From positions 1-32,989 of the forward strand of contig JANOFP010000527.1 in the NCBI GenBank assembly GCA_031413675.1: a stretch of 32,989 nt of DNA, in the 5' to 3' direction. Shown piece after piece: positions 3,851-32,797 of this stretch (position 1 is its first letter; each line of letters starts with the position of its first letter). Source of the DNA: Bacteroidota bacterium. GTDB taxonomy: Bacteria > Bacteroidota > Bacteroidia > Chitinophagales > Chitinophagaceae. Under the pieces are notes generated by a model, which made no database searches, was not told where the DNA came from, and saw nothing but the letters and a program-made list of their open reading frames with translations. The position numbers were made by a program, and so were the translations under genes.

Positions 3851-3920
3851 CCGGCGGTTGATTAGGATTTGGAGGTCGTTGATTTCTTTGATTGGGATTT
3901 TGTCGGTCTCTTTGTTGAAG
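3851..3920 (-). pseudogene. Orphan copy of the ricT (PSP1) 3' end
   Basis: 3871-3917 matches 5180-5226 at 42/47 bases without gaps. In the ricT frame it reads LQQRDRQNPNQRNQRPPNPNQPPGGN. It has no start codon and is out of frame with the adjacent ATPase stop. Confidence 0.6.
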
Positions 3921-3921
3921 T

Positions 3922-5049
3922 TTATTGCAACCACCTCATTAAAAATTTATCATAAACTGCATAGTAAGGTTCTGCAATGCCACCGTTGTAATACACCATT
4001 TCTTTTGCCAATAATGCCTCCAGGCCTCTCTTTACTAATGAAGAGTTTCCTAAATGGTTTTTACTTATAAATTCATTAGAATGGGGTTTTATTAATTTCT
4101 CTTCTTTTGCAATTGCTGTAAGCAATACCCATTGTGCATGTGTAAGCAGGTTCCTGTATTGGTAAAATATATCCTCTTTTTGTTTCAATAGTTCACTACT
4201 AACTTTAATCGTTTCTTCAATACCAATATTTTTTATGCCACTTGCAAAAATGCAATTACATAACTCTTGTACATAAAAGGTATGTGTATGGGTGAAATTT
4301 AATATATACTCAATAGCCTCAACGCTAATTTTTCGTTTATACGTTGAAAAATTATTTTTAATAAATTGCCCGTATTCTGTATTATTTATAAACCCAATTG
4401 ACAAGTTATTACAACTGGCATAGAATGGCCTTTTTGCACTGTTGAACATTTCCGTCATTATACGATGGTTGCTGCCACAAAAAATAAACCGGCAATTTTT
4501 TAACTGCTGCATATAAGTCCTCAACAATGCTTCTGTATTTTTTTCCGGGTAAGTGGTTATTTGCTGAAATTCATCAATAGCAATAACAACAGCGATGTTT
4601 TGCTTATCTAAAAAATTAAATAATTGCTGTATGGTTCTTTCAGATTCACGGTGCTGCCCCAAATCTAATGTTACCTCCGGGTTACCTGTCATTGCATCAT
4701 AACTTATTACCGGCCTCAATAGCTTAAGTACAGACAAAAATTTCTGCCCTATCCCTTTCTTCTCAGGAAACCGGTTATAGATTGCGGTAGCCAGGTTGTT
4801 TGTAAACTCCTTAAGGTTAACGGTAGAAAAAATATCTAAATAGATGCAAGCAATTTTTTTTGACCCTGATAGTTGATGAAATACATGGTGTACCAATCCC
4901 GTTTTACCCAATCTGCGTAATGCAAAAAGGGTAATGTTATTTTCATTTTTAATCAGCGAAAGTAAACGCCGGGTTTCTTCTTTTCTATCGCAAAAGTAAA
5001 CTGGACTGTGGTAGCCCGACGTAATAAATGGGTTGGCTGGGCGGTTCAT
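3922..5049 (-). CDS. ATP-binding protein, AAA/STAND-like (archaeal-ATPase PF01637 / DUF234-type architecture)
   Basis: It has a Walker A-like RRLGKTGL, a Walker B VVIAIDEFQQI, a sensor-like FCGSNH and a C-terminal winged-helix-like region. The family assignment is from memory, not searched. Confidence 0.85.
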   Translation of the reverse strand: MNRPANPFITSGYHSPVYFCDRKEETRRLLSLIKNENNITLFALRRLGKTGLVHHVFHQLSGSKKIACIYLDIFSTVNLKEFTNNLATAIYNRFPEKKGIGQKFLSVLKLLRPVISYDAMTGNPEVTLDLGQHRESERTIQQLFNFLDKQNIAVVIAIDEFQQITTYPEKNTEALLRTYMQQLKNCRFIFCGSNHRIMTEMFNSAKRPFYASCNNLSIGFINNTEYGQFIKNNFSTYKRKISVEAIEYILNFTHTHTFYVQELCNCIFASGIKNIGIEETIKVSSELLKQKEDIFYQYRNLLTHAQWVLLTAIAKEEKLIKPHSNEFISKNHLGNSSLVKRGLEALLAKEMVYYNGGIAEPYYAVYDKFLMRWLQ

Positions 5050-5109: not shown

Positions 5110-6462
5110 TTACGCATTTCCCTCATTTGTATTGCCTGCCTGCCGGTCAGGCGGACCCGGACGTTGCTGGTTCGAATTCGGTGGTCGCTGATTTCTTTGA
5201 TTGGGGTTTTGCCTGTCTCTTTGTTGGTTGGGGTTTTGTCCGCCTCTTTGCTGATTCGGATTATTGCGTGGTGGTCCTTGTGGTCCCTGTGATCTTTGTC
5301 CACCGGATCCTGCGGATTGATTTCCCTGTTGTCTTTGCTGCTGACGTGGTTGCTGCTGTTGCTTTCGTTTACGGTCAGCTCTTTCTAATTGCTGCAAACT
5401 TATCTGTCCTACTACATCCACAAACTCGGGTTCTACTTCTTTGGGTTTAGTACTTGTTATTTCCACTGCTTCCAGTTCGTCGGGTATTACACCCTGTACA
5501 TTCAGCGTTTTTATTTTCTGCACCCGTTCAATCGTAAGTGGATAATGCTTGGTGCTGTCCGGCATAGTGTACCACATCAGGTTTTTAAAAATATCTTTTT
5601 TAATCAGAAAGGCATTGCCTTTTGTAATTTTCAATACATCGCAGTCTTCGGGGAAATGTTGCAATGCATCCAGATAAGTATCGAGTTCATAATTCAAACA
5701 ACATTTTAATCTTCCGCACTGTCCGCTAAGCTTTGTTTGATTGATTGATAAATTCTGATAACGGGCCGCTGTTGTATTTACACTTTTAAATTCGGTGAGC
5801 CATGTACTACAACACAATTCACGACCACAACTTCCGATGCCCCCGACTTTAGCACTCTCCTGCCTTGCTCCAATCTGACGCATTTCCACTTTTACTTTAA
5901 ACTCACCGGCATATACTTTTATCAATTCACGAAAATCCACACGGCCTTCGGCTATATAAAAAAAGGTTGCCTTACGTCCGTCGGCTTGCATCTCCACTTC
6001 ACTTATTTTCATGTTTAGTTTCAGCTGCTTTGCAATTGCACGGCTACGTATCACGGCTTCTTTCTCTCTTGCTTTATTACTGCGCCAGGTATCTACATCT
6101 CTGTCATTTGAGCGGCGAAGAATTTTTTTCATCTCTTTGTCATCTTCTTTTACACCATGCCTTTTCATTTGTAACCGAACAATCTCACCTGTCAAAGAAA
6201 TTTCACCCAAATCAAAACCACTTACACCTTCTACCGAAACCATATCGCCTTTTTCGTATTCATGCAATGTAGTATTTCTAAAAAAATCTTTGCGGCTACC
6301 GTTATTAAAACTTATCTCCACCACTTTACATTCATCACCAGCGTCGGCAACAGGAAGGTTGCGCAGCCAGTCATGCGTATTCATGCGGTTGCATCCGCCA
6401 GAACTACATCCGCCGTTGCTTTTACATCCACCTGGTTTTGTACCACAACTACCGCAAGCCAT
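5110..6462 (-). CDS. ricT: PSP1 domain protein (YaaT/RicT family) with a Cys-rich N-terminus and a Q/N/R/P-rich C-terminal tail
   Basis: The N-terminus is CGSCGTKPGGCKSNGGCSSGGC. PSP1-type Cys motifs CGRELCC and CGRLKCCLNYE are present. It lies downstream of holB, as in many bacteria. Confidence 0.9.
   Translation of the reverse strand: MACGSCGTKPGGCKSNGGCSSGGCNRMNTHDWLRNLPVADAGDECKVVEISFNNGSRKDFFRNTTLHEYEKGDMVSVEGVSGFDLGEISLTGEIVRLQMKRHGVKEDDKEMKKILRRSNDRDVDTWRSNKAREKEAVIRSRAIAKQLKLNMKISEVEMQADGRKATFFYIAEGRVDFRELIKVYAGEFKVKVEMRQIGARQESAKVGGIGSCGRELCCSTWLTEFKSVNTTAARYQNLSINQTKLSGQCGRLKCCLNYELDTYLDALQHFPEDCDVLKITKGNAFLIKKDIFKNLMWYTMPDSTKHYPLTIERVQKIKTLNVQGVIPDELEAVEITSTKPKEVEPEFVDVVGQISLQQLERADRKRKQQQQPRQQQRQQGNQSAGSGGQRSQGPQGPPRNNPNQQRGGQNPNQQRDRQNPNQRNQRPPNSNQQRPGPPDRQAGNTNEGNA
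5135..5155. repeat. 21-nt GC hairpin element, copy inside the ricT CDS (encodes PDRQAG)
   Basis: CCTGCCTG-CCGGT-CAGGCGGA matches the radA copy at 19/21 positions. Confidence 0.75.
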
Positions 6463-6548: not shown

Positions 6549-6792
6549 GAGGGGGAGCCAGCGCAGTTACTACTATCATCGCCTGTTGTCTTCGAATCTT
6601 CCGGTGGAAGATTATCTCACTTGTTGCGTTCAGAAAAGGACTGAACAATTTTGAGACTCTTGTATTTTGCTGAATAGACTTGATTCAGTACAAGAGTGCG
6701 ACGCAACGGAAGCTTAATATATAGACGAACGATGACTCAATAATTACAACCTGAACTATGTGGAAACACCATCTAGTGCAGGCCTCCAACTC
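6549..6792. ncRNA. Candidate structured RNA or non-coding element of unknown class between holB and ricT
   Basis: The block is ~45% GC (hand count) inside an otherwise AT-rich spacer and contains no ORF. A closing helix pairs 6549-6559 with 6781-6792. Nested hairpins lie at 6595-6613, 6628-6646, 6656-6697 and 6756-6776. No known RNA family was recognised. Confidence 0.3.
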
Positions 6793-6801
6793 ACATCTCA
6801 C

Positions 6802-6825
6802 AACCTGTCTGCCGACAGGCAGGTT
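6802..6825. repeat. GC hairpin element, intergenic copy 16 nt downstream of the holB stop, flanked by CAACTCA/CATCTCA and CCACTCA heptamers
   Basis: AACCTGTCTG-CCGA-CAGGCAGGTT forms 10 bp, with one T:G position. Confidence 0.7.
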
Positions 6826-6840
6826 CACCACTCACATCCC

Positions 6841-8070
6841 TCAATCTGCCAAAAGTACTATTTTGTTTTTAATGATATGATATAGTTTAATGGTAAGGGC
6901 ATGGAAGAGCATTTTGGCGTTGGCATTGCGTTCTATATAATAAACCGCCCTGTCAAGCTCCTCTACTATAGCCTGTTGCTGGCTGATGTCGGCTATTTTA
7001 TTAATTCGGTTTGCAAAATCATTTTCAGAGCTGTCAGTGGCTTCAATACCTATGGGGCTGGTGATGCGCAAATGAATACTTTGTTCTAACAGGTGATTAA
7101 AATAGCGGAGAAACTGTTTTTGTTTTTCCCTGCCAAGCCTGCTTATCTCTTCCACCCATTTAGTTTGAGCAGCTGGCCCCGTTTTTAAAATTGCATTCAG
7201 CCAGTCCCGTAATAAACTTTGCCAATCTTCATCGGCATGTTGTAATTGCTGTAAAGCATCCCGGTAATTTCCATCGCTTGTTGCCGCTACCTGCCTTGCT
7301 TTATTCGCATCGGTATTGTTTCTGTTTATCAGTGCATCTGCTATATCCTTTGTTTCAAGCAATGGAATTTTCACCAATTGACATCTCGATACGATTGTTG
7401 GTAGAATTAAGGATTCATTTTCTGCAACCAAGATAAATAAAGTATTGGGTGGCGGCTCTTCAATAATCTTCAACAATTTGTTTCCTTCTTTTTCCAGGTA
7501 CTCGGGCATCCAGAGAATTAATATTTTATAGGGGCTTTCAAAACTTTTCAGACTTAGTTTCTTAATAATGTCATTGCATTCAAGTGCCGTTATATTTCCT
7601 TGCTTGTTTTCTGCTCCTATAAACTGAAGCCAGTCATATATATTTCCATAAGGGTAGCCTTTTATAAATTCTCGCCACTCGGTTATATAATCTGTACTGA
7701 TAGGTGGTTTGCCCGATTTGTTTGTTACAACAGGATAGGAAAAATGAATATCAGGATGAACGAGTTCATTTGCTTTTTTACAACCGGAGCAAATGCCGCA
7801 GGAATCTGAAGGTGAGTGGTGAGTGGTGAGTGATGAGTGTGAAGGCTCATCTCCAAACAAAGAAGGTTCTGAGTGCTGATTGCCGACTGCTGACTGTTTG
7901 TCGCCAGTTTTTTCGCAAACAACATACTGGGCAAATGCAAGAGCAAGCTGTAATGCACCACTTCCTTCTTTACCTAAAAACAATAATGCATGAGCCAGCC
8001 TGTTTGTTTGCATCATATCAGCTAATTGATGCTTTACGTTTTGTTGTGCTATGATAGAAGAAAATTGCAT
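6841..8070 (-). CDS. holB: DNA polymerase III subunit delta' (clamp-loader AAA+), carrying a 28-aa repeat-derived insert
   Basis: The N-terminus has AHALLFLGKEGSG. A zinc-module CGICSGC is followed by HPDIHF, and the SRC motif TIVSRCQ is present. The gene is adjacent to ricT. Confidence 0.85.
   Translation of the reverse strand: MQFSSIIAQQNVKHQLADMMQTNRLAHALLFLGKEGSGALQLALAFAQYVVCEKTGDKQSAVGNQHSEPSLFGDEPSHSSLTTHHSPSDSCGICSGCKKANELVHPDIHFSYPVVTNKSGKPPISTDYITEWREFIKGYPYGNIYDWLQFIGAENKQGNITALECNDIIKKLSLKSFESPYKILILWMPEYLEKEGNKLLKIIEEPPPNTLFILVAENESLILPTIVSRCQLVKIPLLETKDIADALINRNNTDANKARQVAATSDGNYRDALQQLQHADEDWQSLLRDWLNAILKTGPAAQTKWVEEISRLGREKQKQFLRYFNHLLEQSIHLRITSPIGIEATDSSENDFANRINKIADISQQQAIVEELDRAVYYIERNANAKMLFHALTIKLYHIIKNKIVLLAD
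7813..7896 (-). repeat. Two-part heptamer-array module in frame in holB (4 x CAGTCAG-type, a 28-nt spacer, 4 x CCACTCA-type)
   Basis: On the plus strand the units are TGAGTGG x2, TGAGTGA and TGAGTGT (7813-7840), and CTGAGTG, CTGATTG, CCGACTG and CTGACTG (7869-7896). The 84 nt equal 12 x 7 and correspond to codons 59-86 exactly. Confidence 0.8.
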
Positions 8071-10919: not shown

Positions 10920-12314
10920 TTAAAACAATAATTTATATACTTCTTCTACCGTTCCCATTGTAATTACTTCAATGCCTGCCTGCCGGTCAGGCAGGTTGAA
11001 TTTTTGTTTCCCAATTCCTTTCTGGTTGTATTTAGAAATAATAATTTTTTCAAATCCCAATTTTTCTGCTTCAGCAATTCTTTGTTCTATCCTGTTTACT
11101 GCTCTGATTTCTCCGCTCAATCCAACTTCGCCAGCAAAACAAATTTGCTGAGTTAGCGGCGTATCATCATAGGAAGATAGCAATGCACAAATAATAGCAA
11201 GGTCAGTTGAAGGGTCTTCTACTTTTAATCCACCGGCAATATTTAAAAAAACATCTTTTACACCAAAATGAAATCCCCCTCTTTTTTCCAGTACAGCAAG
11301 CAATAGCTGCAGTCTTCTTAAATCGAAACCACTTACTGTTCTTTGCGGTGTACCATAAACTGATTGTGTAACCAATGCCTGCACTTCTATTAATAAGGGT
11401 CGCATTCCTTCCATCATTGCTGCTATAGCAATACCACTTAAATTTTCTTCTTTTTGTGTAATTAAAATTTCACTGGGGTTTAAAACTCCCCGCATTCCTG
11501 CATCTGTCATCTCATAAATACCTAATTCCGAAGTGCTGCCAAAACGGTTTTTAAGTGTTCTTAAAATCCGGTATGCGTGATGACGATCGCCTTCAAATTG
11601 TAAAACCGTATCCACCATATGCTCAAGAATTTTTGGACCAGCTATACTGCCATCTTTAGTTATGTGGCCAATTAAAAAAACAGGAGTATTCGTTTCTTTT
11701 GCAAACCGTTGAAATTCGGATGTACATTCTCTGATTTGCGATACACTGCCAGGCGATGATTCAATATAAGGCGTCTGTAATGTTTGTATAGAATCAATGA
11801 TTACTAACTGCGGTTTTAATTTTTTTATTTCCTGAAAAATAACCTGTGTGGATGTTTCTGTAAGCAGATAAAATTTTTCATTCTTTAATTGCAATCTGTC
11901 TGCACGCATTTTAATCTGCAACTCACTTTCTTCGCCACTTATATAAAGAACAGTTGTGTCCTTCATCCATAACCCGTTTTGTAAAAACAAAGTTGATTTG
12001 CCAATGCCCGGTTCGCCAGCAACTAAAACAATACTACCCGGAACAATGCCTCCACCTAACACACGATTTAATTCAACATCCGCTGTTAGCAATCTTTTTT
12101 CTCCAGTTGTTATTATTTCATTTAATTGAATTGTTCTTTCAGTTCGGGGTTCAGCATTATAATCCTTCCATCCATTATTATTTTTAGTTGTATCCTTCTG
12201 AATTATTTCTTCTACAAATGTATTCCACTGACTACAAGAAGGACATTGACCTGCCCATTTAACTGTCTCATATCCGCAGTTCTGACAAAAAAAACTTGTT
12301 TTCACTTTACTCAT
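10920..12314 (-). CDS. radA: DNA repair protein RadA/Sms
   Basis: It has the zinc finger CQNCGYETVKWAGQCPSC, Walker A GEPGIGKST, a KNRFG motif and a Lon-like C-terminal domain. Confidence 0.95.
   Translation of the reverse strand: MSKVKTSFFCQNCGYETVKWAGQCPSCSQWNTFVEEIIQKDTTKNNNGWKDYNAEPRTERTIQLNEIITTGEKRLLTADVELNRVLGGGIVPGSIVLVAGEPGIGKSTLFLQNGLWMKDTTVLYISGEESELQIKMRADRLQLKNEKFYLLTETSTQVIFQEIKKLKPQLVIIDSIQTLQTPYIESSPGSVSQIRECTSEFQRFAKETNTPVFLIGHITKDGSIAGPKILEHMVDTVLQFEGDRHHAYRILRTLKNRFGSTSELGIYEMTDAGMRGVLNPSEILITQKEENLSGIAIAAMMEGMRPLLIEVQALVTQSVYGTPQRTVSGFDLRRLQLLLAVLEKRGGFHFGVKDVFLNIAGGLKVEDPSTDLAIICALLSSYDDTPLTQQICFAGEVGLSGEIRAVNRIEQRIAEAEKLGFEKIIISKYNQKGIGKQKFNLPDRQAGIEVITMGTVEEVYKLLF
10975..10995. 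repeat. 21-nt GC hairpin element, perfect copy inside the radA CDS (encodes LPDRQAG)
   Basis: CCTGCCTG-CCGGT-CAGGCAGG has 8-bp perfect arms. It has the same orientation and reading frame as the ricT copy. Confidence 0.8.
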
Positions 12315-29486: not shown

Positions 29487-31352
29487 GTGCAGGATAAAAT
29501 TCTTTTATTGCCCGATAATATAGCCAACCAAATAGCTGCCGGTGAAGTAATTCAACGGCCAGCAAGTGCTGTAAAAGAATTATTGGAAAATGCGGTAGAT
29601 GCGGGAGCTACTGAAATAAAATTGATTGTGGCTGATGCAGGAAAAGCGTTGATTCAGGTGATAGATAATGGCGGAGGCATGAGTGAAACCGATGCAAGAA
29701 TGTGTTTTGAACGTCACGCCACATCGAAGATTGAAACCATTGAAGATTTATTTCATATTAAAACAATGGGCTTTCGGGGAGAAGCATTGGCTTCTATTGC
29801 AGCCGTAGCGCAGGTAGAATTGAAAACAAAAAGAGCAGATGATGAAACCGGAACTTATATTGAAATTGAAAACAGTTTTGTAAAAAAACAAGAACCTATT
29901 GCAGCACCTACCGGCACCAGCATTGCCATGAAGAATTTATTTTTTAATGTGCCTGCCCGTCGAAATTTTTTGAAAAGTAATGCTGCCGAGATGCGGCATA
30001 TCGTAGATGAGTTTATACGGGTGGCACTTGCATTTCCAGAACTTTTTTTTTCGCTTACGGCAAACAATCAGCAACTGATGCATTTAGATGCCGGTAGTAT
30101 GAAGCAACGCATAATTCAGGTGCTGGGAAATAATTACAATGCAAAACTGGTAGCTGTAAAAGAAGAGACGGACTATATGAATATTTCAGGCTTCGTTGGT
30201 AAACCTGAAACAGCAAAGAAGACAAGAGGTGATCAGTATTTTTTTGTAAACAACCGGTTTATTAAAAGTGCTTATCTCAATCATGCCGTAATGAGTGCAT
30301 ACCAGGAAATGATTGCAAAAGATAGTTTTCCGATGTATTGTTTGTTTATTGATCTTGACCCGGCAGTAGTGGATGTAAATGTGCATCCGACAAAACAGGA
30401 AATAAAATTTGAAGATGAAAAAATTATTTATGCGTTTGTTCAGGCTGCAGTAAAGCATGCATTGGCACAGTTCAGCATTTCTCCTACATTGGATTTTTCA
30501 TTGAATGCCGATATACAACAATTGCCTTCCGTACAGCAACCATTTACAAAAGAAAAAGAATCATCAGCAGCCTCAACTTCCTTGTTTAAAGAATTTACAC
30601 AAAAAAACCAGGCACATTTTATAGAGAAAAATGAATTGAAGCATTGGAAAGATTTGTATGAAAGCAATCAGCAATCAGGAGTCAGTGGCCAGCAGTCAGC
30701 AATCAGCAGCCAGGGAAATGATCAACGTTCAATTGAAGAAAATCCTTCTGGATTTAAGAGTCTGCTTGCCACTCACGACTCACCACTCACCACTCACAAC
30801 ACTCAACTACATAATCAATTTATTATTGCACCTACTCCGTCTGGTTTCATTCTCATCGATCAGCAGGCGGCACATGAAAGAATTATTTATGAACGATTGC
30901 TGAATGCCTCAAAAGATAAACCCGTAACAACACAGCGAAGCATTTTTCCAATAACGATTGAATTAACTCCTGCTGATGCCGTTCTTATTGATGAGTTGAA
31001 AACCGAATTGCAATTACTTGGATTTTTGATTGAACCTTTTGGGAAAAATACTTTTGTAGTACAGGGTACACCTGCCGATGTACCGCAGGGAAATGAAAAA
31101 CAGGCAATCGATTCTTTATTGGAACAGTTCAAGCATTTCAGCAGCGACATAAAATTTTCGAAACGAGAAAAGCTGATTCGTTCACTTGCATGGCATCAAT
31201 CTATAAAGGCAGGCACTTCATTAACAGAAAAAGAAATGAAAGGTTTGATCGATGATTTGTTTCAATGTGCTACTCCCAATGCAACTCCCGGTGGCAGTCC
31301 TACTTATTTAGAGTTTAAGAAAGATCAGTTGGAGAAAATGTTTGGCAAGTAA
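29487..31352 (+). CDS. mutL: DNA mismatch repair protein MutL, with a repeat-derived linker insert
   Basis: It has the GHKL N-terminus LLPDNIANQIAAGEVIQRPASAVKELLENAVDAGA, DNGGGM and a C-terminal dimerisation domain. The start is uncertain: GTG 29487 places LLP at residues 7-9 as in other MutL proteins, and the alternatives are TTG 29460 and TTG 29481. Confidence 0.9.
   Translation: MQDKILLLPDNIANQIAAGEVIQRPASAVKELLENAVDAGATEIKLIVADAGKALIQVIDNGGGMSETDARMCFERHATSKIETIEDLFHIKTMGFRGEALASIAAVAQVELKTKRADDETGTYIEIENSFVKKQEPIAAPTGTSIAMKNLFFNVPARRNFLKSNAAEMRHIVDEFIRVALAFPELFFSLTANNQQLMHLDAGSMKQRIIQVLGNNYNAKLVAVKEETDYMNISGFVGKPETAKKTRGDQYFFVNNRFIKSAYLNHAVMSAYQEMIAKDSFPMYCLFIDLDPAVVDVNVHPTKQEIKFEDEKIIYAFVQAAVKHALAQFSISPTLDFSLNADIQQLPSVQQPFTKEKESSAASTSLFKEFTQKNQAHFIEKNELKHWKDLYESNQQSGVSGQQSAISSQGNDQRSIEENPSGFKSLLATHDSPLTTHNTQLHNQFIIAPTPSGFILIDQQAAHERIIYERLLNASKDKPVTTQRSIFPITIELTPADAVLIDELKTELQLLGFLIEPFGKNTFVVQGTPADVPQGNEKQAIDSLLEQFKHFSSDIKFSKREKLIRSLAWHQSIKAGTSLTEKEMKGLIDDLFQCATPNATPGGSPTYLEFKKDQLEKMFGK
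30662..30717 (+). repeat. Eight tandem heptamers (AAGCAAT CAGCAAT CAGGAGT CAGTGGC CAGCAGT CAGCAAT CAGCAGC CAGGGAA) in the mutL linker
   Basis: The 7-nt periodicity is seen directly. The array encodes QQSGVSGQQSAISSQG. Confidence 0.8.
30769..30810 (+). repeat. Tandem heptamers CCACTCA CGACTCA CCACTCA CCACTCA (then degenerate CAACACT CAACTAC) in the mutL linker
   Basis: Seen directly. It encodes THDSPLTTHNTQL and uses the same unit as the holB array and the holB 3' flank. Confidence 0.8.
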
Positions 31353-31358
31353 GGCTAC

Positions 31359-31447
31359 ACGCAAAGACGCTAAGATTAAAACAAAAGAAGCAAAGAGAGT
31401 TTTTTACTTTGCGTTATTCTTTGCGTCCCTGCCTGCCGTCTGGCAGG
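31359..31447. terminator. Compound hairpins in the convergent mutL/dacB spacer, including a GC hairpin copy at 31428-31447
   Basis: ACGCAAAGA (31359-31367) pairs with TCTTTGCGT (31418-31426) around an inner GCAAAG/CTTTGC hairpin that has a T-rich tail on the minus strand. Next comes CCTGCC-TGCCGTCT-GGCAGG followed by TTTGCG on the plus strand. Confidence 0.45.
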
Positions 31448-31462
31448 TTTGCGTGAAATATT

Positions 31463-32797
31463 TTAATACTTATTGCGGATTGACTGGATAAATTTTTCGA
31501 CAGCACGCCGCACTGCGATAGCAGAAGCTTGATGATTATTTATCAAAACAGAAAAAAGCAATTGCTTTCCTTTTTTGGTAGTAAGAAAACCGCTGAGTGC
31601 AACAACACCGCTTAGTGTTCCGGTTTTTGCATAAATAAATCCGCTGTCGGTTTTATAATAACTGCTGATTGTGCCCTCACCACCTGTAGGAAAAATTTCT
31701 TTGATGCGGTTCATACCAAATTCATTTTTCATCTTATTTAAAATGGCAACAAAATCCTGTGGAGTAAATAAATTATAGCGGCTCAGACCGGAACCATCCA
31801 CCCATCTTGGTTTTTGTGGCAGGTCTTTAAAATCTGTTTTTAATAATGTGTCAATGATCTTTTCATCATTCATTACACCGAGCAGTTCATTGCTTACCAT
31901 TAATAAACTTTGCTCTGCAAAAAAATTATCACTGCGGTGCATCATGGGTTTGAGGAGGGAGTCGGTGGGTTGGGAATGGATGACTTTAAAATTATTTCTG
32001 TTAGAATAAATACCTGTTCGAACTTTTTTATGAATTGTGTCACCAAGTATTTCGATATAGACTAATCCACTAGTGGGTCTAAAAGGGGCTCGTATTGTTT
32101 TACTACCATTCCCTGGTCCATAACACCCAATTAAATATTTATTCTCAAATACATCAAATTTTTTTATTGATTTAAAAACCCTACATTGAATATCAGTCAC
32201 GATATTATTTTCGAAAATTCTCGGTATAGAAGATACTTTCCCTGTATCATTAACTGAAAAAGTCACAAGATTGCCATAAACAGGAAACTCAGACCTGGGG
32301 ACTAAGTATGTTTCACTCACATCATTAATTTGCCATCCATTTCCATAAGGAAATCTATAATTCGTTTCATATGGTGCCAAAACAGCTACATTCAATCCAG
32401 TAGTGTTTAAGAAATTATAAACTGGATGAACTTTAAAATCAGGATGCAAAAAAGTAGGGTCGCCGTTAGGTTTAAAGGATATACTCGAGTCATTATCGTT
32501 TAAATACCTCAACCCCACCAAACTATCTCCCAAATATTTCATCGCTACATAGCAGGCAGGGATTTTTGTATTACTCGCAGGCACAAAATATTTTTCACCA
32601 TTATAATTATACCAGTATTTGTTTTCTCCGGGTTCGTAAATGCTGATGCCAACATGTGCTGTGAGCAATGAAGAATCTTGTAAAACAATTTCTTTTGCTG
32701 ATCTGGAGATTTGTTTTGTGATATTGCATGAAGCGAGCAGCAAGAGACAAGTAGCGAGTGGGAGAAAGCAGCGGGCTTTTAATTGAATAGTGAGCAT
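31463..32797 (-). CDS. dacB: D-alanyl-D-alanine carboxypeptidase/endopeptidase (PBP4, peptidase S13), lipoprotein
   Basis: It has SxxK (ASNTK), an SxN-type motif (HRSDN), KTG (AKTGT) and the lipobox LLLLASC. Confidence 0.85.
   Translation of the reverse strand: MLTIQLKARCFLPLATCLLLLASCNITKQISRSAKEIVLQDSSLLTAHVGISIYEPGENKYWYNYNGEKYFVPASNTKIPACYVAMKYLGDSLVGLRYLNDNDSSISFKPNGDPTFLHPDFKVHPVYNFLNTTGLNVAVLAPYETNYRFPYGNGWQINDVSETYLVPRSEFPVYGNLVTFSVNDTGKVSSIPRIFENNIVTDIQCRVFKSIKKFDVFENKYLIGCYGPGNGSKTIRAPFRPTSGLVYIEILGDTIHKKVRTGIYSNRNNFKVIHSQPTDSLLKPMMHRSDNFFAEQSLLMVSNELLGVMNDEKIIDTLLKTDFKDLPQKPRWVDGSGLSRYNLFTPQDFVAILNKMKNEFGMNRIKEIFPTGGEGTISSYYKTDSGFIYAKTGTLSGVVALSGFLTTKKGKQLLFSVLINNHQASAIAVRRAVEKFIQSIRNKY

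Follow-up and report, generated by a model that had tools for sequence, protein, structure and literature searches.

A GC-rich hairpin of 20-21 nt recurs in the genes radA and ricT and between genes in a stretch of 32,989 nucleotides from a soil or sediment bacterium of the family Chitinophagaceae (Bacteroidota; assembly GCA_031413675.1, contig JANOFP010000527.1), which in its full length is referred to as the window in the following. Several classes of small bacterial repeats resemble this hairpin in one respect or another. The SDR elements of the Nostocaceae (SDR1-8), attributed to Elhai et al. 2008, are reportedly 21-27 nt long and encode no protein; some of them (SDR4-6) are said to form hairpins, and SDR5 is said to target HIP1. 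SDRs reportedly reside inside tandem heptamer arrays, inside their own copies, and inside a palindrome, and are said to have been proposed as the smallest mobile elements. Rickettsia palindromic elements (RPEs) have a size of roughly 100-150 bp and are known only from Rickettsia, and MITEs such as Correia/NEMIS, RUP, ERIC, and Nezha are elements of 70-300 bp with terminal inverted repeats derived from insertion sequences and with target-site duplications. In PMC5861425, SDRs are reported to be confined to one cyanobacterial subgroup. REPs are palindromic dispersed repeats of 20-40 bp with GTAG- and CGTC-tagged superfamilies (Di Nocera et al. 2013, PMC3733652). According to this paper, intragenic REPs also exist, often in genes for replication and repair, a part of the REPs has inserted into small palindromes, and mobilisation in trans is assumed to involve single-stranded hairpins. 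The paper also cites the RPEs (Ogata et al. 2000, 2002). NTS has a length of about 30 bp, carries a CGTC tag and an ATTCCC...GGGAAT palindrome, and flanks ssnA; this multicopy hairpin is recognised as single-stranded DNA by the GIY-YIG (cd10448) nuclease Ssn acting in trans (Chenal et al. 2025, PMC11893778).

In size and context, the closest known system to the hairpin of the window appears to be the cyanobacterial SDRs, which are compared here by their description. As described for these, the hairpin has no coding capacity of its own. A possible further parallel is that some copies are found in a heptamer context (the copy at 6804 of the window; 4.3% of metagenome copies vs 0.4% of control positions), nested in one another (L267), or at a palindromic target in radA, with palindromic targets not being significantly enriched overall. 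In contrast to SDRs, the hairpin occurs in Bacteroidota, in Patescibacteria, in contigs with 33-75% GC, and in phages, and it stands out by being found frequently in frame in essential genes. The short GC-rich stem-loop with perfect 8-bp arms is shared with REPs, but the hairpin cannot be placed among the tagged REPs because it bears neither a GTAG nor a CGTC tag; in addition, no RAYT or other transposase was found in 150 neighbouring open reading frames (ORFs), about two thirds of the copies on low-GC contigs are located in ORFs and are not predominantly extragenic, and one sequence spans phyla, in contrast to REP families, most of which are limited to a species or genus. The insertion into genes is similar in effect to that of intragenic REPs (PMC3733652). 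As with RPEs, a palindromic repeat is found in frame in conserved proteins (RadA, RicT, HolB, DnaJ, DnaK, AlaRS, RecG) and is tolerated as an extra surface peptide. A previous reading of the window from its letters alone, termed the sequence-only reading here, had compared the hairpin to a much smaller RPE. This comparison holds for the effect, an in-frame insertion; membership of the RPE family fails because of the size (20-21 bp, seven residues), the sequence, and the occurrence in other phyla. NTS and the Ssn-related motif (SRM) provide a model for the handling of a hairpin, but the element does not belong to them because the CGTC tag and ssnA are lacking, and a GIY-YIG gene is a neighbour only once. 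It is non-autonomous, has an inverted-repeat structure, and is sometimes intragenic as are MITEs, and is separated from these because no target duplication is found.

Neither the 21-mer nor its peptides were found in any paper by a literature search. Because a letter-identical sequence is scattered in unrelated bacteria, and the hairpin core is also found in phages, the hairpin looks like a member of an undescribed family of ultra-small mobile elements. The reading favoured here, which is held to be probable with considerable room for error, is that the 21-mer represents one copy of an ultra-small mobile element (20-21 nt) that is GC-rich, palindromic, and non-autonomous, resembles REPs and SDRs, and is moved in trans. 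Its notable features are the cross-phylum identity, the frequent in-frame residence in essential genes, and the repeated strikes on the same two radA codons.

Filled and empty sites

The radA gene of the window is encoded by a minus-strand ORF with a zinc ribbon, a KaiC/AAA ATPase, and a ChlI/Lon_C domain as in RadA. Its hairpin reads CCTGCCTG-CCGGT-CAGGCAGG on the plus strand and CCTGCCTG-ACCGG-CAGGCAGG on the coding strand, with two perfect 8-bp arms and a 5-nt loop (Table 1), and its translation LPDRQAG is added between ...KQKFN and IEV.... The sequence-only reading had described this hairpin, its arms, and its peptide as they are present; its position within radA was also correct, with the distance from the start of the copy to the stop codon being 24 codons instead of 25.

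Relatives found by a RadA protein search mostly have a length of 457 aa compared to 464 aa in the window. The closest of them (P0003-P0007), with 94-96% identical RadA proteins, lack the seven residues and have C-termini of the type ...KQKFN|IEV.... This agrees with the statement in the sequence-only reading that the RadA segment is about seven residues shorter in other Bacteroidota, and the orthologues generally do not have the seven residues at all, rather than encoding LPDRQAG-like residues by non-palindromic codons. The empty radA allele (L121, L122) has the codons AAA TTC AAT ATA/ATT GAA, corresponding to TTCAA|TATTGAA, whereas the filled allele of the window, L124, L145, and L175 is TTCAA[CCTGCCTGACCGGCAGGCAGG]T/C ATTGAA, with the codons AAA TTC AA[C CTG CCT GAC CGG CAG GCA GG]T/C ATT GAA; the window itself reads TTCAA[21 nt]CATTGAA. 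Comparison of both alleles therefore places the 21-nt palindrome exactly between AA and T of an asparagine codon. The empty radA site, TTCAATATTGAA, already forms a palindrome of 12 nt. In an alignment to RadA of S. pneumoniae (5LKM), the insert falls into a loop with gaps that precedes the final strand of the Lon-like domain.

Further pairs of filled and empty sites have been found outside radA, so that the in-frame insertion suggested by the sequence-only reading is borne out by empty sites in the radA genes of relatives and by pairs in ricT, in holB, and in a spacer. A contig with about 96% identity to the window (metagenome run X5) lacks exactly 20 nt at position 6804 in the spacer between holB and ricT and retains the radA copy. 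Conversely, a relative with 92% identity (L227/L228) has a clean 21-nt copy in the tail of RicT at a position that is empty in the window, and holB of L227 (L227:3974-3993) contains an in-frame copy translated into LPAGRQG after an asparagine codon, where the window has no copy. This holB copy is located in a disordered loop that holds heptamer arrays in holB of the window. RicT tails of other relatives have LPDRQAG, PDRQAG, or PPAGQAG at differing tail positions. In a viral locus (L102), a 20-nt copy divides a 5' fragment of a tRNA exactly within the D-arm, GCTCAGTTGGTA^GAGC. No target-site duplication was found in the filled and empty pairs of radA, the holB/ricT spacer, or ricT.

The copy between mutL and dacB could not be paired with an empty site, since X5, as the only close strain that was found, has another spacer at this place; the corresponding spacers of L122 are too diverged to be aligned. 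In the X5 strain (about 96% identity), the entire mutL/dacB spacer (window 31343-31519, 175 nt) is swapped for 184 other letters.

The paired alleles indicate that the hairpin is inserted DNA and not native coding sequence. At the level of sequence, they also demonstrate that the element enters DNA as a discrete unit that is gained or lost between close relatives.

Repeated insertion at two radA positions

The distribution of the insert was followed in 80 named genome loci, nearly all of them metagenome-assembled genomes of Chitinophagaceae, together with protein hits, amounting to 204 RadA sequences of which 203 were classifiable. A plain 10-residue loop with neither insert is present in 162 of these. 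Site 1, after KFN, is filled in 25 sequences and site 2, after KYN and ten codons upstream, in 21, with both sites being filled in 5. The states of both sites range from perfect hairpins to decayed relics (LADRQAG, ISERHPG, KPGPASG, QAFRQAN, LSFRS...). Recognisable site-1 copies have one orientation, except for two sister sequences (LPAGQGG/LPACQGG) with the opposite loop orientation. Site 2 holds at least two forms, a 20-nt palindrome plus one base (LPAGRQG) and a form derived from the 21-mer (LAYRQAG).

In a RadA tree built without the loop columns, the carriers are dispersed within well-supported clades that otherwise lack the insert. The window and L125 fall inside the clade of P0003/L121 and P0004-7, and each of L145, L163, L175, and L124/P0040 has an insert-free group as its sister. 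By parsimony, site 1 must have changed 15-16 times and site 2 13 times, and the approximately unbiased (AU) test rejects monophyly of the 16 carriers with an intact site-1 copy (delta lnL 384, p = 0.0005). This pattern indicates that the same two positions in the C-terminal loop of radA have been struck repeatedly in Chitinophagaceae.

Distribution in metagenomes, phages, and other phyla

The exact 21-mer of radA is present in at least 120 metagenome contigs with GC contents from 33 to 75%. The host genes are of all kinds and are not repair genes alone; the exact 21-mer was found in frame in genes for Mur ligase, RecG, AlaRS, DnaK, UPF0182, and histidine kinases as well as in a gene for DnaJ. 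The named relatives of this DnaJ are Patescibacteria, and these relatives lack the 7 aa. The copies in Chitinophagaceae and in the Patescibacteria-type DnaJ therefore place the same letters in at least two phyla, and the hairpin core is also found in phages.

Reading frames were counted in contigs with less than 45% GC, in which spurious ORFs are rare. There, 44 of 66 copies, i.e., about two thirds, are located within ORFs of at least 120 aa, and these 44 copies are read as LPDRQAG (22), as LPAGQAG (13), and in three other open frames (9), with none of them in the stop frame. Genic copies add seven residues, either as 20 nt plus one base or as 21 nt, avoid the stop frame, and are located in tolerant places such as surface loops and disordered tails, a pattern seen by inspection.

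In viral sequences, the pattern CCTGCCTG-N3-6-CAGGCAGG occurs in at least 120 stretches, as against 22 for a composition-matched decoy with reversed arms. The viral loops are not random: CCGG, which results in a perfect 20-nt palindrome, is found in 41 of about 130 copies, followed by the one-base variants TCCGG, CCGGC, ACCGG, CCGGT, and CCGGA. The core of the element can be written as CCTGCCTG-CCGG-CAGGCAGG, with the 21-nt forms having one additional loop base. The viral carrier contigs include real phages with terminase, portal, and capsid genes, and some of these are densely occupied, with 12 copies in 11.9 kb in L097 and 5 copies in 400 nt in L036 (L036:1030-1405). Four of the five copies in L036 lie in one ORF of 357 aa between the portal and capsid genes, which probably encodes a scaffolding-type protein. 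The variant of the spacer copy at 6804-6823 of the window was found identically in L129 and in the viral locus L063.

In a plasmid collection (H17-H56), partial matches are concentrated on megaplasmids of Sinorhizobium, Rhizobium, and Ensifer (84 of 117 records). These may represent a related GC-rich repeat or an effect of base composition.

Junctions and sequence context

The bases next to the hairpin are not random. In the metagenome set, 112 of 124 copies of the 21-mer are directly followed by C or T, and 2 of 125 are directly preceded by T. Most good copies in Chitinophagaceae are bordered by AA^, by ^TT, or by both, compared to flanks of the type GA...TC in many high-GC viral contigs. Nested and tandem copies exist as well (L267, nested; L252 and L344). 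Flanks with period-7 heptamers accompany 5 of 117 metagenome copies (4.3%) vs 0.4% of control positions, and 4 of 176 viral copies. Heptamer arrays were nevertheless rejected as a general context: they are enriched about tenfold, yet surround a minority of the copies.

A second family of ultra-small palindromes, the 18-nt TCCCGATAGCTATCGGGA, has 20 matches with no more than 2 mismatches in the retrieved loci, among them L227:5145-5162, L227:3895-3912, L126, L138, L155, L165, L166, L168, and L169. In L227, TCCCGATAGCTATCGGGA takes the place that the CCTG hairpin of the window has in the holB/ricT spacer, and it is also found in frame in holB (KLPIAIGT).

A possible mode of movement

If the 21-mer is a mobile element as proposed, a trans-acting enzyme would recognise the single-stranded hairpin and mobilise its copies, similar to RAYT with REPs or to TnpA in the 'peel-and-paste' of IS200/IS605. 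This type of movement leaves no duplication and makes precise excision possible. By analogy with these systems, and with Ssn and NTS as a nuclease example, a single-strand hairpin enzyme would be the most likely mechanism, and it is favoured because of the seamless junctions, the possible precise loss, and the non-random flanking bases. The preferred junction in the Chitinophagaceae family would be AA^Y, and phages may aid the carriage of the element between lineages. In genes, the element would be a neutral or near-neutral passenger of seven residues (LPDRQAG, LPAGQAG, LPAGRQG) that decays afterwards.

A number of results weigh against this mobile-element reading. Transposase, nuclease, and integrase families are not enriched in the 150 ORFs beside copies, which are housekeeping and phage genes, and Y1_Tnp/RAYT is absent from them. 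Among some 660 sides abutting the hairpin, GTAG was found 5 times and CGTC about 9 times. All GTAG cases (5 among about 316 viral sides) belong to one contig family and none is in the window; CGTC is rare beside the hairpin, with one case being the window copy at 31428. A GIY-YIG neighbour was found as one small gene (L102) among about 255 neighbouring ORFs. Among 50,697 records of cultured phages, none contains an exact copy in full length. The radA neighbourhoods of the 80 related genomes are sparsely occupied (16 matches in 1.4 Mb), and because of this density the four copies in 33 kb of the window are on the high side. The site and orientation in radA are identical each time, which short-patch allelic recombination could also yield. 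Finally, two candidate rules for the target were rejected. AA^ is present in Chitinophagaceae, but not in the cross-phylum metagenome set, and is not a universal target; a palindromic target with arms of at least 5 nt was found for 8.5% of the copies in the metagenome set compared to 4.5%, which is not significant, although radA site 1 does have such a target.

Linkage to a GIY-YIG/Ssn or RAYT system was likewise rejected as there is neither a tag nor an enrichment, and the hairpin-dense phage contigs have structural genes only. In L102 (L102:495-816), the copy is located just upstream of an ORF of 88 aa for the GIY-YIG protein, and no tRNA was called there by ARAGORN. In a viral contig with 60% GC (L067:2648, 2897, 10690; L077:447), the hairpin is part of a larger repeat with GTAG/CTAC abutting in inverted pairs. 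This layout is REPIN-like and was seen nowhere else.

Alternative explanations

The main mechanistic rival is an enzyme-free copy-choice process, in which replication stalls at the hairpin, the nascent strand switches to another copy via a microhomology of 1-2 nt (AA in Chitinophagaceae, GA in high-GC contigs), copies its 20-21 nt, and then returns at T or C. Such a process, which is considered rather unlikely, would fit with the lack of a linked or enriched enzyme gene, of a tag, and of a target duplication, and it would account for flanks that match the consensus of each family (AA...TT for Chitinophagaceae; GA...TC for many of the viral contigs with high GC). Tandem and nested copies, the tenfold excess of heptamer-array copies over controls, and an unrelated 18-nt palindrome that behaves alike in the same genomes point in the same direction. 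However, microhomologies of 1-2 nt are very weak, and copy-choice leaves unexplained both the letter-perfect identity over 33-75% GC and across phyla and the repeated use of exactly two radA positions.

A further and more doubtful explanation is confined to radA. It assumes one or a few insertions, after which short-patch homologous recombination, e.g., by natural transformation, moved filled and empty alleles between lineages of Chitinophagaceae, accompanied by vertical decay. Intact site-1 copies all have the same position and orientation, lateral transfer of alleles would likewise break the monophyly of the carriers, and the highly conserved flanks (AAA TTC AA / ATT GAA) could support such an exchange. 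On the other hand, adjacent synonymous sites track the clade of each carrier, and no shared haplotype block is found. The pattern of these sites argues against the transfer of a shared allele block and would remain compatible with very short patches. Two different forms of the element are present at site 2, and the copies in ricT, holB, spacers, and the genes for DnaJ, DnaK, AlaRS, and phage proteins need de novo insertion anyway. Short-patch recombination could therefore contribute to the radA pattern and is incapable of creating copies at new loci.

That the hairpin is a selected functional signal that arose in place, such as a protein-binding site, a DNA-uptake-type signal, a terminator, or an RNA element, is very improbable. 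Its letter-for-letter conservation in very different genomes would be in line with such a role, as would the location of 3 of the 4 window copies in or beside genome-maintenance genes, and on the plus strand the radA copy together with TGAATTTTTG (window 10974-11005) fits the pattern of an intrinsic terminator with a stem and a T-run. This putative terminator is antisense to radA, however, and no plus-strand gene ends there. A terminator role of the spacer copies was rejected, since they have no T-run and were not called by a terminator scan; the suggestion in the sequence-only reading that they might coincide with transcript 3' ends found no support in either respect. Furthermore, coding copies decay freely (LADRQAG, ISERHPG, KPGPASG, and others), and the host genes in metagenomes are of every kind. 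The presence or absence of the element takes the form of clean 20/21-nt indels and not of point changes, by which the functional-signal explanation is largely refuted.

Chance similarity or an assembly artefact, for which only the short length of the motif speaks, is refuted by the lack of any match at up to 3 mismatches in 100 dinucleotide-preserving shuffles of the window, which confirms the expectation that four copies are unlikely by chance, by the occurrence of the exact 21-mer in at least 120 independent metagenome contigs, by in-frame decayed copies in many independently assembled genomes, and by the decoy count of 22 viral stretches versus at least 120.

Implications of a putative mobile hairpin family

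Beyond the mobile-element reading of the 21-mer itself, a wider proposal can be made tentatively. CCTGCCTG-(N)CCGG-CAGGCAGG may possibly be a member of a pan-bacterial and phage-borne class of 'bare hairpin' elements of about 20 nt, which would insert seamlessly at preferred junctions by a structure-directed and as yet undescribed mechanism (with neither a tag nor a duplication nor a linked gene), strike the same codon repeatedly in independent lineages, and represent a general, overlooked source of lineage-specific loop insertions of 6-7 residues in essential proteins. The 18-nt TCCCGATAGCTATCGGGA would be another member of this class.

If the mobile family is real, it would be near the minimum size for a mobile element, consisting of a stem and a loop. 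It would cross phyla, ride in phages, and repeatedly add seven residues to the essential proteins RadA, DnaK, DnaJ, AlaRS, RecG, and HolB without killing them. REP- or SDR-like movement of hairpins would become directly testable, with defined alleles and one radA site that has been struck many times. A concrete origin would also be available for many small lineage-specific indels in conserved proteins. For annotators and phylogeneticists this would be a caution that such indels may be homoplastic, with identical inserts appearing at a shared codon in lineages that are not related.

Copies and repeats in the window

A search of the window with up to 3 mismatches found the ricT copy, and looser searches yielded both 20-nt variants (Table 1). 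The sequence-only reading had listed the 19/21 ricT copy with its orientation and frame as found here, and both spacer copies are present as well, with a length of 20 nt and not of 21 nt. Its statement that five of the six reading frames of the 21-mer are open is also correct, with a stop only in the PA* frame.

Table 1. Copies of the hairpin, their host genes, and the second radA insertion site in the window
Feature	Position	Strand	Remarks
Intact 21-nt hairpin, in frame in radA	10975-10995	- (coding strand)	Plus strand CCTGCCTGCCGGTCAGGCAGG
radA, 464 aa, host of the intact copy	10920-12314	-	Pfam RadA/Lon_C architecture
19/21 copy in ricT, same orientation and frame as the radA copy	5135-5155	-	Translates PPDRQAG
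ricT (PSP1 family), 450 aa, contains the second coding copy	5110-6462	-	PSP1/RicT
20-nt variant CCTGTCTGCCGACAGGCAGG, holB/ricT spacer	6804-6823	.	AA/TT flanks; begins 17 nt past the holB stop
20-nt variant CCTGCCTGCCGTCTGGCAGG, spacer of convergent mutL and dacB	31428-31447	.	Found by looser search of the window
Second radA insertion site TAC AA^C CAG, empty in the window	11020-11030	-	Filled in other Chitinophagaceae

The radA copy folds far better than shuffled sequences (z = -4.8, DNA fold -11.4 kcal/mol), as does the copy in the holB spacer (z = -4.4). The ricT copy is located in the disordered C-terminal tail of RicT/PSP1; its left arm is mutated, the hairpin is weakened, and the fold is no better than that of shuffles (z = -0.8).

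The spacer copy between holB and ricT (6780-6850) lies within heptamers of the GTGAG type, ATGTGAG TGGTGAA [hairpin] TTGTGAG ATGTGAG TTGGAGG. The same spacer contains a 90-nt dispersed repeat with the core GTACAAGAGTGCGACGCAAC, which is distinct from the hairpin. The 3' end of ricT is present in a 59-nt duplication with 85% identity (window 5135-5226 and 3859-3917), which brackets an ATPase gene (3922-5049). L227 has the ATPase gene without the duplicated end. In the window, the ricT hairpin copy is located 12 nt from the end of the 59-nt duplication and may mark a recombination junction.

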